Assembly (NCBI GenBank): GCA_026328835.1 | Contig: GCA_026328835.1_4850.1 | Length of the DNA: 46,457 bases | Source of the DNA: a phage | Strand: one strand, 5' to 3' | Shown here: in pieces, positions 16,856 through 46,137 of the stretch | How positions within the stretch are numbered: position 1 is the first letter of the stretch | Layout: each line of letters starts with the position of its first letter | Made by a program: the position numbers and the translations under genes | Notes under the pieces: generated by a model | What the model saw: only the letters and a program-made list of their open reading frames with translations | Told to the model about the DNA's origin: nothing | The model's database searches: none

Positions 16856-17572
16856 ATGCAAAACATGAGCAATCGCACGCCACTAACAGAAATCGGAGAG
16901 ATGCGCATCTCGCTTTCCGACAGGAGTTTTTTCTTCAAGCCATCATTCCGCGCCATGAATGAAATCGGCACACCAAAAGAAATCGTTGAGGTGTGCGCCA
17001 GACTCAATGGCATTGATTATGTTGCGCCATTACAGCACGTCGAATATCTGCCATTTGGCGCTCAAATGCAGGTCATGAAGACTATCAGCAAGCCAGTGTA
17101 TGGTCGGCACGTACTGAGTGCCGCCTATATCGTCATGCAGTCATGCTGTGAAGATGATATTTCTGTTCTGATTGGTGGATGGAAGCCAACACCGCGCGGT
17201 GTGCGATATGTTCCCGGCATCATGCCAGTGAACGACATTATTATTATTGCGCGCAACCTGATGCAGCACGGCGTCATTGGCAAATCCCCACTCAAGGTGC
17301 CTGAACGTCTGGAAGAACAGGGTAAGAAAACCACAAACGAGTTTCATGCGTCGCAATACATCATCTCGGCGCGCACGCATTTCGACATGACGCGCGATGA
17401 GGCAGAAAACCTGTCTATGACAGAGTTTCAGATGATGATTAAGAATAAATATCCAGAGCCGAAAGGGTTAACGAAAGAAGAGCGCGCAGCCGAGTACGAT
17501 CAGGCCAAAGCAGACCGTGAACGCATGAAGGCACTGGCTGAACGCAAAGCGAAAAAAGCGAGGAATACATAA
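16856..17572 (+). CDS. tail assembly chaperone
   Basis: 238-aa ORF immediately before tape measure gene; basic C-terminus. Confidence 0.5.
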   Translation: MQNMSNRTPLTEIGEMRISLSDRSFFFKPSFRAMNEIGTPKEIVEVCARLNGIDYVAPLQHVEYLPFGAQMQVMKTISKPVYGRHVLSAAYIVMQSCCEDDISVLIGGWKPTPRGVRYVPGIMPVNDIIIIARNLMQHGVIGKSPLKVPERLEEQGKKTTNEFHASQYIISARTHFDMTRDEAENLSMTEFQMMIKNKYPEPKGLTKEERAAEYDQAKADRERMKALAERKAKKARNT

Positions 17573-20058
17573 TGGCTGAAGAAGTCGGCGGAATTGTCTA
17601 TGAAGTCGGGATGGATGTATCAGGACTGACGACTGGCGGGCAAAAGGTAAACAAGGTTCTTCAGGAGATTGAGAAATCAATTGATGAGTCAATTGCTGGG
17701 ATAAATAAACTTGACACGGGACTAAAAAACACCGCATCGACAGTTGAGAAATCTGGCAGGAGTTTCTCCAGTTTAAATAACGCCATGCGACAGGGTGGCT
17801 ACCAGATTCAGGACTTTGTAGTTCAGGTGCAGAGTGGACAATCAGCACTTGTTGCTTTAAGTCAACAAGGTAGCCAGTTATTAAGCGTCTTTGGTTCTGG
17901 TGGTGCGGTTGCCGGTGCATTGTTAACCATCGGTACGGTAATCGTTGGCTCATTAATTGCCGGCATGGATAACGCAACCGTTTCCACAAAGGCGCTCACC
18001 GCCGCACAGCAGAGACTTGCTGACATATTCCAGCTTTCTGCTAATGGGGTTGTCGTTCTCTCTGACAAGTTTGCAACACTGGCTAAACAGTCAGAAAACG
18101 CCGCCAGAGCACAGTTAACAATGGCTCTGATTGATGCAAACAACATCATCAAGGCTTCAGTGCAGGGCGTCAATGAGCTTGGCGACGCACTTGGCTCGTG
18201 GAAAGCACCACTATCCGCCGCCATAAGTCAACTTGACACGCTGAAAGCAAGAGGTATCGATGTAAACGCAGCGCTAAAGAACCTTGGCGGGACATATGAG
18301 GGTAATATTCTCGGACTAAACCAACTCAATCAGGTGGTAAAAAGTCTGGCTGATGAGTTTGGCATAAGCGCAGATGACGCCCTGAAACTGGTTGAAGCTC
18401 TGGCAGCCGTAAGAAAAAATGCCAATCCTGAAACAATAGCGGAGTTGCGCGACCTGACTGTTGACCTTAGTCAGAAATATGGATATGCAAACAAGTCACT
18501 ATCTGAGCTTACTGGCAAGGTTGGCGAGTATTCAATTTCGGCAGATCAGGCAGCAGAATCTACAAAGCTGGCTACCGATATGCTGAACGGGCACAAAGTA
18601 GCTTCAGAAGAGGATGCGAGAGCCACTGAAGAAAACACGAAAAGGCTTCAGGCTTACATCCAGTCGATTAAGGAAGAAGGTGAAACCATCGCCTTTACAG
18701 CAAGACAAAAGGCACTGTACAGAGCTGAACAGCTTGGGGCAAGTGATGCAGACAAGCAAACAATCAACTCGTCATTCGACAAGATAGAGGCATACAAGGC
18801 TGAGCTTGCTGCAAAAAAAGAGCAGGAAAAGCAAGACAAAAAACGCATAGCTGCGTCAACAAAGCAAGCCAACCTTGAAGAGTCGGTAGCACAAAAGCTG
18901 GAGAAATTACGCCAGCAAACCATGCTTAATGCCACATCTACCAGCGAACTCTCCCGCGAGCAAGCAATCCTCAACGCACAGCAATCGCTTGGCAAAGCTG
19001 CAACTCAGGAGCAGATAAAACTGGCTGGCGAGTACGCTGCGAAGATTTGGGACCAGAAGAATGCACTGAAGGAGCAAGCGGCAGCGGAGAAGGAAAGGCA
19101 GCGTATAGAGAAATCATATCAGGGGTTGCGCGCCATTGCGTCGCCAACCACTGGCATTGACAGTGAATACCAGCAACGTATGGCTGACCTTGACGCCTAC
19201 GCCGCAGCATATCCGCAGAAAATCACGGAGATTGAACAAACTCGCGCAGCAATTGAAGCACAATATCGCCAGCAGAGAATGGACGCCATGTGGGCTGAAT
19301 GGCAGCAACAAAGCCTCGGTGCGCAGCTTTTCGGCACTGCTCTTGATTCAGCGATGAGCGCGGCATCAAACAGCATCACCGGATTGCTGACGGGCACAAT
19401 GAGCGTGCAGGATGCAATGCGCAGCCTAGGCTCTACGGTGCTTAACTCTCTGGTAAATAGTTTCGTCGAAATGGGCGTTCAGTGGGTTAAATCTGCAGTT
19501 ATGGGACAGACTGCGCAGGTTGCGGCTACGGCAACCACAACAGCAGCGCAAACGGCTGGACTGGCAACCACAACAGCAGCATCCACTGCGGCGGCAGCAA
19601 CCACTACGGCAGCATGGACTCCCGCAGCAATCGTCGCATCAATCGGTTCATTCGGTGGTGCAGCAGCAATTGGTGTAGGTGCCGTTCTCGGAGCGCTGGC
19701 GATGGGTATCGCTGGCAAGCGAAAAAATGGTGGGCCTGTTAGTGCCGGAAGTATGTACGAAGTGGGCGAGGGAAACGCCCCAGAAATATTCCAGGCCAGC
19801 ACAGGCAGGCAATACATGATACCTGGCAACTCAGGAAAGGTTATCAGCAATAAGGATATTTCCGGTGGAGTGGGTGGTGTTGTTGTTTATAATAATGTTT
19901 ACAATAATTCAAGCAATGCTAGCGCAACAAGCAGAGCCACTGATAACGGTGATGGTTCGATAACTATTGAGACATTTATATCCGATATGAATGAAGGCGG
20001 ACCGATGAGCCAATCTATCTCAAGAAACTTTAATACCAACAGGAGGGCAACAGAGTAA
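17572..20058 (+). CDS. tail tape measure protein
   Basis: 828 aa; long helical region; Ala/Thr-rich hydrophobic segment; RBS GAGGAA. Confidence 0.85.
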   Translation: MAEEVGGIVYEVGMDVSGLTTGGQKVNKVLQEIEKSIDESIAGINKLDTGLKNTASTVEKSGRSFSSLNNAMRQGGYQIQDFVVQVQSGQSALVALSQQGSQLLSVFGSGGAVAGALLTIGTVIVGSLIAGMDNATVSTKALTAAQQRLADIFQLSANGVVVLSDKFATLAKQSENAARAQLTMALIDANNIIKASVQGVNELGDALGSWKAPLSAAISQLDTLKARGIDVNAALKNLGGTYEGNILGLNQLNQVVKSLADEFGISADDALKLVEALAAVRKNANPETIAELRDLTVDLSQKYGYANKSLSELTGKVGEYSISADQAAESTKLATDMLNGHKVASEEDARATEENTKRLQAYIQSIKEEGETIAFTARQKALYRAEQLGASDADKQTINSSFDKIEAYKAELAAKKEQEKQDKKRIAASTKQANLEESVAQKLEKLRQQTMLNATSTSELSREQAILNAQQSLGKAATQEQIKLAGEYAAKIWDQKNALKEQAAAEKERQRIEKSYQGLRAIASPTTGIDSEYQQRMADLDAYAAAYPQKITEIEQTRAAIEAQYRQQRMDAMWAEWQQQSLGAQLFGTALDSAMSAASNSITGLLTGTMSVQDAMRSLGSTVLNSLVNSFVEMGVQWVKSAVMGQTAQVAATATTTAAQTAGLATTTAASTAAAATTTAAWTPAAIVASIGSFGGAAAIGVGAVLGALAMGIAGKRKNGGPVSAGSMYEVGEGNAPEIFQASTGRQYMIPGNSGKVISNKDISGGVGGVVVYNNVYNNSSNASATSRATDNGDGSITIETFISDMNEGGPMSQSISRNFNTNRRATE

Positions 20059-20061
20059 AAA

Positions 20062-20085
20062 ATAAGCCCCTCACGGGGCTTTGTT
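20062..20085. terminator. rho-independent terminator
   Basis: aagcccc-tcac-ggggctt stem-loop. Confidence 0.6.
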
Positions 20086-20949
20086 CATTATCTCGTCCAT
20101 TAATTCAGGTGAATATTTAAGCCACTCCGTTGCGCCATCAAACCCTGTCAGTCCTGCACTTTCGTATTTCTTATGATAGTACCTTTCAATAGCAAGAGCA
20201 TCACAACCTATTGTCTTTATTTTTGATATGACGTGAAAATCAAATGGTGTGTTTTTCTTTAACTGACAAACTCTACGCCTAAGATTGTTAGTGATCCCAA
20301 CTTTAATTTCGTTTCCTGAGAACAAGAAGTAAACAAAGGCCTTTTCTTTCAGCTTGAAACCTCCCTTGGAGCAATGAGGGCAACCTTGCCCTTGGAGATG
20401 CTTATCTGGCGTCTTTGTAAACCACCCATGCTCTGGGCATTTTATTCTCATTTTTGTTGTCACATTAATGTATGACAAGCAATCATAATGGTACTTATTC
20501 CCATGAATTATAATGGCATCTTTCTTGAACTTATTGAACCCCTTAGTTACAGATGCTGTAATTTTCTCCCTTGCGCAAACAGGGCAACCACACCCATTAA
20601 GGTGGCTGTTGGCCTCCTGAGAAAACTCAAAGTTATGTACTTTGCATATTATTTTTACTTTCTTGTGACCACCTTTGTATTCAACTTTAGAATAATCATA
20701 AGAGTCACCATGCTTTGCAATCGCATCAGCCACAAATTCACGCGTTGTTTTCTTCTTATTTCCAGAGCAAGAAGGGCATCCAGCTCCATTCAAATGAGAG
20801 TTTGGAGTCTGCTCAAATAGCCCATGCTTACGGCATGTTATCTTTACCTTTATCGAACTTTTTATATAAGAAACAGCATCATAAAGATATTTATCACCAT
20901 GAATATCTCTGGCTTTTATAATAAATTCTTCAGCGGTTGACTTGCTCAT
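20071..20949 (-). CDS. putative nuclease: three tandem Cys/His zinc-ribbon repeats plus T5orf172 (GIY-YIG-like) C-terminal domain
   Basis: three ~65-aa repeats HG.KY.Y...C..HG.F...P..HL.G.GCP.C; C-terminal VYFLF..NEIKVGIT.NL.RR...EWL. Confidence 0.55.
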   Translation of the reverse strand: MSKSTAEEFIIKARDIHGDKYLYDAVSYIKSSIKVKITCRKHGLFEQTPNSHLNGAGCPSCSGNKKKTTREFVADAIAKHGDSYDYSKVEYKGGHKKVKIICKVHNFEFSQEANSHLNGCGCPVCAREKITASVTKGFNKFKKDAIIIHGNKYHYDCLSYINVTTKMRIKCPEHGWFTKTPDKHLQGQGCPHCSKGGFKLKEKAFVYFLFSGNEIKVGITNNLRRRVCQLKKNTPFDFHVISKIKTIGCDALAIERYYHKKYESAGLTGFDGATEWLKYSPELMDEIMNKAP

Positions 20950-21086
20950 GATTGAATCCTCGGTTAAAGGTGGTTTGAAGTGATGCAGCAGGCGATAACC
21001 AATCGCTTTTCATCTGGCCGGACTAGCTGCACTTATGATTGTACCATCAGCGTGCTAAAATACAACAACACAAGATGGAGACTATC

Positions 21087-22451
21087 ATGGCCATAATACC
21101 CTATCCAAGCTGGTTGCCTTTAGCTCAGAGGGCCAGCAAGAATTTGACATTTCAAACCCCATTCAGACAGGATGTTCCTGCTGTTGGCGCACCTATTTTT
21201 CAAAAATTAACGACTGATATAAGTTCGCAGTGGTCACTGACGTGGAAGTTTACACTGGCGGAAGAACGTGCATTTATCCAGTGGTTGCGCAGCTCACGCT
21301 ACCTGAATAAGTGCAATAACTGGTTTACCATGATGATTGACCTCGGCGGCAGCGGATTGCAGGAGCAGACGCTGCATTTTACCGATTATCCAGTGCAAAC
21401 CAGTATCGATGGTGGCGTTGTTACATGGACTGGTAACGTTATTGCTAAAAAACTCAACAACACGATGGATGAGTTTGATGATGTCCTGGTCGAACTGGAT
21501 TACAGATGGTACAGCTGGCTGGATGAAGTTGTTAACCGTGAACTTCCGCAAGTATATATGACACCAATATTGCATATGCCAATTAACATGCTGTCATCCA
21601 CGCTTGATAGCCGCATTGTGTATGATGGACCACAGGTTTATTACATCAACAGAAACGGTAATCTTGTGCAGTCCGCCGTCAATGAATGGCCTCTTACGTT
21701 TATTGACGGGGTCGCTGTCGGGCGTGTACCGCCGGAAAATGTCCGCGTTAATTTCGCAGTAAATAACGCTGACATATCCAGCGCCGCATGGGTGAAGATT
21801 AATATGTCTGTTTCTGAATATGACACCATCACCGGAGGGTATGCCCTAACCCCGACCACAAAAAATGGCACGCACAATTTAAACCAAACTGTGACAAACA
21901 CGACGCACCAGGTAGGTAGTTTGGTTACAGTTAGTTACATGGTCAAGGCTAACGGCTATGATTTCTTCCGCGTAAGAGTAGCTGACAGTTTAGGCTTCCT
22001 GGGGGATGTAGTAATAAACTCTACTTCAGGGGAGGTTGTTAGCGGCTATGGTGTGTCAACAGTACAAAATCTTGGAGGTGGACTGTTTCGGGTTACCAAA
22101 ACAGTAACAATACGGGTGGGTGGAACAACAAGTATACTTATGCAGTGTTTTGTGGACGCCGACGGGTTGAAGTCAACCTATCCTGGAGACGGGGTCAGCG
22201 GTGCGGTTATTTTGCTGCCACAAATAGAAAAATCTTCATTCGCTACGTCACCAATAGTAACTGACGCATCGCCATCTACACGCCCGGCGGCATCCGCAAA
22301 AGTAGCAATGAACGGCGCAACAAGCATCGACATTGCCTATTCAGACGGCTCCATAGTGAACGTTCCGGCGGTTGACGATTATGCAACCATCCCACAGGCT
22401 GATTCAGCGTGGGGAAGTAAGTACATCACAACAATAAAATTCAACGTCTGA
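21087..22451 (+). CDS. minor tail protein (distal tail protein-like with C-terminal extension)
   Basis: ATG 21087 with GGAG RBS preferred; position between tape measure and L-like gene. Confidence 0.45.
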   Translation: MAIIPYPSWLPLAQRASKNLTFQTPFRQDVPAVGAPIFQKLTTDISSQWSLTWKFTLAEERAFIQWLRSSRYLNKCNNWFTMMIDLGGSGLQEQTLHFTDYPVQTSIDGGVVTWTGNVIAKKLNNTMDEFDDVLVELDYRWYSWLDEVVNRELPQVYMTPILHMPINMLSSTLDSRIVYDGPQVYYINRNGNLVQSAVNEWPLTFIDGVAVGRVPPENVRVNFAVNNADISSAAWVKINMSVSEYDTITGGYALTPTTKNGTHNLNQTVTNTTHQVGSLVTVSYMVKANGYDFFRVRVADSLGFLGDVVINSTSGEVVSGYGVSTVQNLGGGLFRVTKTVTIRVGGTTSILMQCFVDADGLKSTYPGDGVSGAVILLPQIEKSSFATSPIVTDASPSTRPAASAKVAMNGATSIDIAYSDGSIVNVPAVDDYATIPQADSAWGSKYITTIKFNV

Positions 22452-22457
22452 CAGTAA

Positions 22458-25795
<3,338 letters not shown>

Positions 25796-40380: not shown

Positions 40381-40387
40381 AATCAAT

Positions 40388-40433
40388 GCGGCAAAGGGTA
40401 GCTCCCTGCCCGGATTGGTCTCCGGGCTGCCGC
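40388..40433 (+). ncRNA. conserved structured 5' leader element (copy A)
   Basis: outer stem gcggca/tgccgc enclosing hairpins aggg-tagct-ccct and gcccgga-ttggtc-tccgggc; near-identical copy at 45501-45546. Confidence 0.5.
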
Positions 40434-40471
40434 ATCCAACCAATAGACCGCCTGTAACCGAGGATTCAATC

Positions 40472-40990
40472 ATGTCATCATTAAAAGAGTTGCCACTCAC
40501 TCAAGAAAGACTTAAACATCTCCTGCATTACAATCCAGACACCGGTGTTTTCACGTGGTTAAGTAAGCCAAGCAGAAGAATAAATTCTGGAAGCATTGCT
40601 GGCAGGATAAAACCTAAGAAGGGGTATGTGGAAATAGGAATAAGTGGAAGGATCTATCTTGCTCATAGGCTGGCATGGCTTTACATCTATGGAACTTGGC
40701 CTAAAGAACAAGTTGACCACATTAATGGCATTCGTAACGATAACAGGATTAAGAATTTAAGGCTGGCCACAACATCACAGAATCAGTGGAACAAGAAGAT
40801 GCAAAAAAACAACACATCTGGAATTAAGGGGGTTAGCTGGGATAATCAACGGGGAAAATGGATAGCCCAATGCTGGTTATTTGGCAAGTATCACAAAATA
40901 GGTAGGTTTTCATCAATTGATGATGCTGAACGTGCAATAAGACAGTTCAGGGAGAAACATCAGGGGGAATTTTGCAATCATGGCGCGTAA
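40472..40990 (+). CDS. HNH homing endonuclease with AP2-like domain
   Basis: start MSSLKEL at 40472; HRLAW...DHINGIRNDNRIKNLR; NTSGIKGVSW. Confidence 0.8.
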   Translation: MSSLKELPLTQERLKHLLHYNPDTGVFTWLSKPSRRINSGSIAGRIKPKKGYVEIGISGRIYLAHRLAWLYIYGTWPKEQVDHINGIRNDNRIKNLRLATTSQNQWNKKMQKNNTSGIKGVSWDNQRGKWIAQCWLFGKYHKIGRFSSIDDAERAIRQFREKHQGEFCNHGA

Positions 40991-42479: not shown

Positions 42480-42686
42480 ATGCGCAGCTATGCAGGATTT
42501 ACACAGGAGGAAAAAGAACAGGTTTATTCACTGGCGCGCGCTGGTGTTCCTGATGATGTCATATGCCGTCGTTATGATATCGACGAGGATTTCCTGCTGC
42601 GCGTCATTGACGATGTGTTCGTTAACCTGCAAGAGAGGCGCGGATATACTGGCATCTGCTGCAAGAATGATTTTTTGAGAGGGTGA
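42480..42686 (+). CDS. hypothetical protein
   Basis: 68-aa ORF downstream of promoter. Confidence 0.45.
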   Translation: MRSYAGFTQEEKEQVYSLARAGVPDDVICRRYDIDEDFLLRVIDDVFVNLQERRGYTGICCKNDFLRG

Positions 42687-45494: not shown

Positions 45495-45500
45495 TTACTT

Positions 45501-45546
45501 GCAGCAAAGGGTAGCTCCCTGCCCGGATTGGTCTCCGGGCTGCTGC
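45501..45546 (+). ncRNA. conserved structured 5' leader element (copy B)
   Basis: identical inner hairpins to copy A; outer stem gcagca/tgctgc carries compensatory change. Confidence 0.5.
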
Positions 45547-45585
45547 ATCCAATCAATAGACCATCCTTATGACCGAGGACTCAAA

Positions 45586-46137
45586 ATGAAATCAATAAAC
45601 CGCAACAAAATGCCTGCAATGGCTCGCCTTTCACATCTATTCATTATTTCCAATGATGGAACAATCAAGCGCAGAATTGCTGCTGGCAATAGAGCGGCAG
45701 GCAGCAGCGCAGAAAGGAGTTTGTGTGGAAGTGACTATACATGCATAACTGTTGATGGCGTAAGATACCTAACCCATAGGGTTATTTGGTTCTTCTTTAC
45801 TGGTGAAGAGCCTGATTATCTTGATCACATAAATAGAAACAAAAAGGACAACAGACTATGCAATTTGAGGCCAGTATCCGCCACAGGAAACAGAAGTAAC
45901 ACTGATTTGATGAACAACAACACAACTGGATATATTGGTGTTTATTGGTATTACTACAAAGGAACTCCTAGATGGAGAGCTGCTTGCAACGATAAACATC
46001 TTGGGTATTACAGTTCGCTTGTCTCGGCAGTAAAGGCATATAATCGTTATGTGACAAGTATTTATGGTGATGAGGCATTAGCAAAGGTTGAGCATAACAA
46101 GAGGATGATCAAAGAATCTTTTGGTATTGAACTGTAG
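45586..46137 (+). CDS. HNH homing endonuclease with AP2-like domain
   Basis: start MKSINRNK at 45586; HRVIW...DHINRNKKDNRLCNLR; NTTGYIGVYW. Confidence 0.75.
   Translation: MKSINRNKMPAMARLSHLFIISNDGTIKRRIAAGNRAAGSSAERSLCGSDYTCITVDGVRYLTHRVIWFFFTGEEPDYLDHINRNKKDNRLCNLRPVSATGNRSNTDLMNNNTTGYIGVYWYYYKGTPRWRAACNDKHLGYYSSLVSAVKAYNRYVTSIYGDEALAKVEHNKRMIKESFGIEL

Follow-up and report, generated by a model that had tools for sequence, protein, structure and literature searches.

A probable T5orf172-type homing endonuclease gene beside the tape-measure gene of a Skatevirus-cluster phage, and its int-alpA-like leader RNA

Homing endonuclease genes (HEGs) of the T5orf172 type carry repeated zinc fingers of the CapR/DUF723/DUF4379 kind, as described by Barth, Dunham & Seed in 2023, and they cluster beside essential genes, the tape-measure gene among them (PMC10448857). 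Several HEG classes occupy the same loci, and HEGs are found at the boundaries of genetic exchange (PMC10448857). The T5orf172 domain of Odn cuts DNA and needs for this a glutamate equivalent to the one conserved in the protein described here (Odn E180A, PMC8263062), and DNA binding by the related CapR finger requires its Cys pairs (PMC8096241).

The window analysed here, a stretch of 46,457 nucleotides of phage DNA (contig GCA_026328835.1_4850.1), comes from an enterobacterial siphophage of the Skatevirus cluster, and swi2, 64795_sal3 and Bas77-81 are its nearest relatives (PMC11990801). Between its tape-measure gene (17572-20058, plus strand) and the next plus-strand tail genes (21087-22451; 22461-22937, encoding a minor tail protein; and 22900-23400), the ORF list contains a single long minus-strand reading frame, as the preliminary description of this DNA had noted, and the homologous loci of annotated phages have the same layout. 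We conclude that this gene is very probably a free-standing HEG of the T5orf172 branch of the GIY-YIG superfamily, the fingers of which would read a long site and the C-terminal domain of which would cut, with the gene spreading by homing. The gene itself is ordinary and adds one example to a described family. Its parts are as follows.

20071-20949, minus strand: HEG reading frame, 292 aa (ORF call; three Pfam DUF4379 stretches, T5orf172 and MUG113; PHROG; swi2 homologue)
20761-20937, minus strand: zinc-finger repeat 1, aa 5-63, ligands C39, H42, C58 and C61 (repeat and family alignments; invariant Cys/His)
20551-20754, minus strand: zinc-finger repeat 2, aa 66-133, ligands C102, H105, C122 and C125 (repeat and family alignments)
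20365-20544, minus strand: zinc-finger repeat 3, aa 136-195, ligands C171, H174, C190 and C193 (repeat and family alignments)
20080-20343, minus strand: T5orf172/GIY-YIG-fold nuclease domain, aa 203-290, with Y207, K216-V-G218, R226, E255, and FDGATEW containing E275

The preliminary description had proposed three tandem Cys/His zinc-ribbon repeats of about 65 residues followed by a T5orf172-like segment, and a domain search of the protein returned this architecture. The repeats are real, being 44-48% identical in pairwise comparison with 19 invariant columns that include the C-x2-H ... C-x2-C ligands of each repeat, and Pfam places DUF4379 in all three stretches above its gathering score (E 1.5e-10, 41.5 bits against a cutoff of 24.5). 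While the assignment as Cys/His zinc-finger repeats thus stands, the ribbon label does not, since Pfam gives the finger as a probable treble clef. In the DNA the repeats are barely visible, a repeat search finding only one 21-nt repeat of 71%, which argues for old duplications rather than the compositional artefact that had been considered. An AF2 model of repeat 2 alone reached a pLDDT of 95.8; compared with the PDB it was without a close solved relative, and its top matches were trypanosome mitoribosome assembly factors, one of which is named a DUF4379 protein. Homologues of the whole protein bear three to five fingers. The family is very large: 4568 proteins of the database match at E <= 1e-5, and 1192 phage records contain matches, frequently several per genome. 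The protein falls into phrog_681 of PHROGs, annotated as 'endonuclease' (1.7e-69). A search of NCBIfam with the protein gave no meaningful match. In the window itself the T5orf172 domain is present as a single copy, and no paralogue of the HEG was found there.

The C-terminal segment is likewise what it had been taken for. Residues 206-290 match T5orf172 (PF10544, 33.0 bits against a cutoff of 20) and MUG113 (PF13455, 38.9 against 22.3), and the predicted structure of the domain has the GIY-YIG alpha/beta fold, matching the nucleases Slx1, I-TevI and UvrC. The AlphaFold model of the whole protein, made with 20 homologues, has a pLDDT of 82 and a low pTM, the latter as expected of independent beads on a string. 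K216, G218, R226, E255 and the FDGATEW motif are invariant in homologues and Y207 is nearly so; the catalytic Arg and Glu, R226 and E255, do not vary in alignments of 20 and of 13 homologues. A weak hhalign alignment (probability 0.45) puts VYFL, KVG and R226 in register with GIY, YVG and R27 of I-TevI, and AIERYYH may correspond to IIERENFW (E75) of I-TevI, an equivalence made by inspection only. Where GIY-YIG has its second Tyr the protein has Lys, a usual substitution in T5orf172 domains. Searching PDB sequences with the whole protein, and with a profile built from the nuclease domain, yielded nothing useful. Taken as a working enzyme, the protein would use its three Cys/His fingers jointly to read a long DNA site, and the T5orf172 domain would cut near the site to which the fingers are bound.

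How such an enzyme would have come to lie in the tail module can be read from the junctions of related phages.

20059-21086, no strand: cassette inserted relative to empty junctions (alignments with Bas77 and IME207; 60/75 IMG/VR junctions empty)
19880-21280, no strand: tract of near-identity to swi2, covering the cassette and about 200 bp on each side (mismatch counts)

At empty junctions, for example in Bas77 and IME207, the TAA of the tape-measure gene overlaps the ATG of the next tail gene (TAATG). Among 75 IMG/VR junctions, 60 are empty, 10 carry a T5orf172 HEG (39-98% identical to that of the window) and 5 carry other inserts; uninterrupted junctions are also found in 153 of 192 GenBank phage records. 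The insertion is a clean intergenic one between conserved genes, bringing its own predicted promoter, RBS and terminator, and GC is 38% in the HEG as against 46% in the window. Presence is thus sporadic, at one conserved site among close relatives, as expected of a free-standing HEG. Together with the domains and the predicted fold, this distribution supports the homing-type nuclease that the preliminary description had put forward with a moron as the other choice, and of these two labels moron is the weaker, because there is no sign of a benefit to the host.

The occupants of the junction differ widely. The swi2 protein (YP_010054114.1, 'endonuclease' in RefSeq) is 98.6% identical to that of the window, with four residue changes, at the same junction; the same site is occupied in 64795_sal3 by a four-finger allele (55% identity) and in BS5 and Bas80 by a further allele (40%). 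In the sal3 allele (L002 4571-4750 against window 20071-20250) the last 33 residues are identical to those of the window's protein, the DNA of this C-terminal end lying inside a block of 90.5% identity, whereas the finger region is diverged; from the sequences, this suggests recombination between alleles inside the HEG. Compared with swi2, the cassette is 98.9% identical and its flanks 92%, with at most 3 mismatches per 100 nt within about 19880-21280 and 5-14 outside (8-14 in most bins), so that the tract ends in a graded transition of about 200 bp. Such a tract is consistent with co-conversion of flanks during homing or with recent import of the cassette, and ordinary recombination is also possible. 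We infer that, when a relative lacking the HEG infects the same cell, the enzyme would cut that relative's uninterrupted junction between the tape-measure gene and the next tail gene, and that repair off the HEG-bearing genome would copy the cassette together with a few hundred bases of flank. The comparison also confirms this junction as a hotspot for selfish nucleases in Skatevirus-cluster phages, and it offers a natural pair with which homing by a T5orf172 enzyme could be studied, swi2-type phages being occupied and Bas77 and IME207 empty.

Several other features of these junctions deserve mention. In KFS-SE2 a KilA-N gene takes the place of the HEG; a minus-strand insert of about 850 bp is found there (L007 3580-4230) and at loci L092, L107, L119 and L120. 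The gene in the KFS-SE2 insert has a weak KilA-N match just under the Pfam cutoff (21.3 against 23.8 bits), and its RefSeq annotation as an 'amidase' is probably wrong. We considered whether the start of the downstream gene (MAIIPYPS or MAIIKYPD), or the last tape-measure codons, might mark immunity to the enzyme; this fitted eight loci and failed in 75, which include an occupied locus with KYPD (L102) and three empty ones with PYPS (L123, L124 and L149), and because these sequences do not cleanly track occupancy we name no target or immunity site. The downstream tail gene (21087-22451) is of the long form, 454 aa, like those of Bas77 and Bas80, and in swi2, sal3, BS5, IME207 and KFS-SE2 it encodes about 158 aa, without a segment of about 920 bp (window 21548-22467). 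The window is therefore a mosaic that is absent from the phage collection. The middle of the tape-measure gene (window 17640-18880 against L001 and L004-L006) is not alignable between relatives, and tape-measure proteins of 792, 828 and 1097 aa occur among them; because this length varies, the tails of these phages probably differ in length as well.

The cassette holds, apart from the reading frame, a compact set of putative expression signals.

20957-20961, minus strand: Shine-Dalgarno sequence GAGGA, 7 nt 5' of the ATG
20980-21034, minus strand: three-stem 5' leader RNA (P1 GCAGC/GCUGC, P2, P3), a relative of int-alpA (Rfam; our own models; covariation)
21038-21046, minus strand: predicted extended -10 promoter of the HEG, TGGTACAAT (sequence; TGnTAYAAT box before 6/6 aligned leaders)
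21053-21061, plus strand: predicted extended -10, TGCTAAAAT, toward the downstream tail genes (sequence; at all occupied junctions including the KilA-N cassette)
20064-20081, no strand: GC-rich hairpin with T-runs on both strands, bidirectional and terminator-like (sequence)

The HEG starts with an ATG preceded by GAGGA, and its TGA stop codon lies in the loop of the hairpin, which itself begins 6 nt past the stop of the tape-measure gene; the hairpin is thus a terminator-like element common to the tape-measure gene on the plus strand and the HEG on the minus strand. If it stops plus-strand transcripts, the downstream tail genes would have to rely on the predicted promoter at 21053-21061, which is followed by GGAG (21077-21080) and then by the ATG at 21087, and this outward promoter and RBS would probably restore expression of a tail gene that the insertion has uncoupled from the tape-measure gene. 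For its own expression, the cassette would supply an extended -10 promoter, a 5'-terminal three-stem leader, an RBS and the hairpin, as a terminator held in common with the tape-measure gene. The inserts of about 850 bp have the predicted outward TGCTAAAAT box and are without the leader RNA.

The leader belongs to a spacer of 137 bp that is conserved 5' of the HEG even where the HEG alleles differ. In other phages a 74-bp piece of this spacer recurs 5' of HNH-AP2 endonuclease genes that neighbour the lysis genes, and the leader likewise precedes HNH-AP2 HEGs in phages SB28 and Seszw_1. Six aligned leaders share the same order of elements, namely a TGnTAYAAT extended -10 box, the three-stem structure, a spacer of about 25 nt, GAGGA and ATG. 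At the junction the leader keeps company with T5orf172 HEGs, being present at 10/10 junctions so occupied, at 0/5 with other inserts and at 0/5 empty ones, and with our own covariance model the motif was found on the HEG strand, 5' of the gene, in about 29 of 80 IMG/VR T5orf172 loci. Covariation bears out the three stems: 12 of 15 base pairs are altered on both sides, 91.2% of leader cells are paired as against 22-56% in slid controls, and none of 500 shuffles reaches the observed score, in an alignment that was fitted to our own model and is biased toward the structure.

Two further HEGs of the window carry a leader of the same design.

40472-40990, plus strand: HNH_3-AP2 HEG between the terminase subunit genes, leader at 40384-40438
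45586-46137, plus strand: HNH_3 HEG after the head-morphogenesis gene, leader at 45497-45551

Both have a TGnTATAAT box and a three-stem leader in the architecture seen at the T5orf172 HEG, and the 17-nt block around its RBS (20950-20966) is identical to the block 5' of the HNH gene at 40472. The inner stems of the two HNH leaders are near-identical to each other and differ from those of the T5orf172 leader, and the outer stem differs in a compensatory manner, GCGGC/GCCGC in the HNH leaders as against GCAGC/GCUGC. We found this second type of leader in 34 phage records; its neighbour is an HNH gene in most of them and a T5orf172 HEG in one. A further match to the leader model at 42480-42605 on the plus strand, within a 68-aa ORF 3' of the large terminase gene, is weak (13.2 bits, E 0.1, with a 65-nt insertion) and probably due to chance.

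The closest described RNA is the Rfam family int-alpA (RF02996), with which the phage leaders have in common a three-stem junction and the joining sequences CUAG, GAAAAGC and CCUG. The leader of the window scores 26.6 bits (E 5e-4) and the aligned leaders 26.6-33.1 bits, all below the gathering score of 35.8, so that they are relatives and not members by the Rfam rule, whereas the more distant HEG leaders L046 (41.9 bits) and L024 (40.1 bits) pass it; our own models R1/R2 give scores of 74-80 bits. Tentatively, we propose that the T5orf172 and HNH HEGs of enterobacterial siphophages share an expression cassette, the core of which would be a 5'-terminal three-stem RNA of the int-alpA family. 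To our knowledge, int-alpA is an orphan Rfam motif, hitherto known only from integrated elements; we found nothing on its function in the literature, nor any published description of an int-alpA-like leader common to unrelated HEGs. The contexts differ. The family name points to integrase genes and the genes that follow them in integrated elements, a setting that the window's leader does not share: the phage leaders lie between promoter and HEG start codon in a lytic-type phage, and the int-alpA copies that we inspected come after integrase genes.

These copies, in two E. coli chromosomes (L090 3501-3558 and L091 3501-3544, beside yicC), lie just 3' of the integrase gene of integrated islands, between it and a gene of about 310 aa. 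The 310-aa genes show no Pfam domain, and no link to HEGs was found for them; they are followed by an HTH regulator in both chromosomes and, in L090, additionally by genes for Icd-like and toprim proteins. The L090 copy has a terminator-like U-run after its outer stem, and the phage leaders are without such a run.

The islands bear on the main alternative, that the enzyme serves chiefly in competition, cutting co-infecting relatives or satellites as the T5orf172 nuclease Odn does in ICP1 (PMC8263062), with the spread of its own gene being secondary. A leader akin to an RNA of integrated islands with HTH-regulator, Icd-like and toprim proteins would suit such a role, and homing and exclusion can coexist. 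Nevertheless, we consider this improbable. The DNA-binding part is a generic HEG finger array and not a replication-initiator domain borrowed from a satellite, as in Odn (PMC10448857), and a PADLOC search gave no match for the HEG, which together make a dedicated defence role less likely. Moreover, a sporadic distribution at a single locus with diverged alleles is the classic pattern of a HEG.

Less probable still is a domesticated regulator, one that would bind near the tail genes and tune their transcription after loss of the nuclease function. CapR evolved from the zinc-finger domain of HEGs of this type (PMC8096241), and I-TevI also serves as a repressor (discussed in PMC10448857). Here the CapR homology domain of Pfam (PF21817) matches repeat 2 at 20.3 bits, under its cutoff of 24.2; the fingers are related to CapR, yet are not of the CapR family by the Pfam rule. 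However, the full T5orf172 domain is kept, with its invariant Arg, Glu and FDGATEW motif, and absence of the HEG from about 80% of relatives indicates that it is dispensable. Just as doubtful is an inactive or decaying remnant without present function, for although HEGs frequently decay after fixation, and locus L121 has a 332-bp remnant insert at the junction, the reading frame is unbroken, no zinc ligand or catalytic residue has been lost, the expression signals are conserved, and the swi2 copy is near-identical with only four residues different.

With the reading as a homing endonuclease gene thus preferred, it is the leader that gives the more useful lead, as it ties an uncharacterised Rfam motif to the position between promoter and HEG start codon across nuclease classes. 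If it is a regulatory element, this would be the first function for int-alpA and a common control layer over selfish nuclease genes. As the outer stem begins only a few nt from the predicted transcript start, the most economical proposal is a 5' stem-loop by which the HEG mRNA would be protected or regulated; the leader might time or limit synthesis of the nuclease, stabilise its mRNA, or respond to some factor, of phage or host, to which satellites are sensitive too. Because the leader has a defined position, its function is directly testable by leader deletion or swap.

The nearest relative of the whole locus is gp06 of Escherichia phage vB_EcoS_swi2, which has the same junction, leader and flanks, the downstream tail gene being of the short form there and of the long form in the window. 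For T5orf172 HEGs of the ICP1 type, we know of no report of a leader RNA. The ICP1 genes (gp165 and gp174) are otherwise built like that of the window, with a C-terminal nuclease after repeated fingers, free-standing beside structural genes (PMC10448857), and as the HEG matches that description on every count, it belongs to an already described kind. Differences lie in the phage lineage, which here is the enterobacterial Skatevirus cluster, in the Pfam assignment of the fingers, DUF4379 with CapR below threshold, and in the ligands, C-x2-H...C-x2-C as against CxxC...CxC. Odn (Gp88 of ICP1), the only close experimental proof that a T5orf172 domain cleaves DNA, has the conserved Arg and Glu of this domain in common with the HEG (PMC8263062), but its RepA_N domain derives from the satellite that it targets, and its role is that of an anti-satellite weapon rather than a homing enzyme. 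From the T4 GIY-YIG enzymes (I-TevI and the Seg proteins) the HEG differs in having Lys for the Tyr of YIG; in addition, its nuclease domain is at the C-terminus and its DNA-binding part is a zinc-finger array, whereas I-TevI has an N-terminal nuclease domain and binds DNA through a linker with a zinc finger and a helix-turn-helix.
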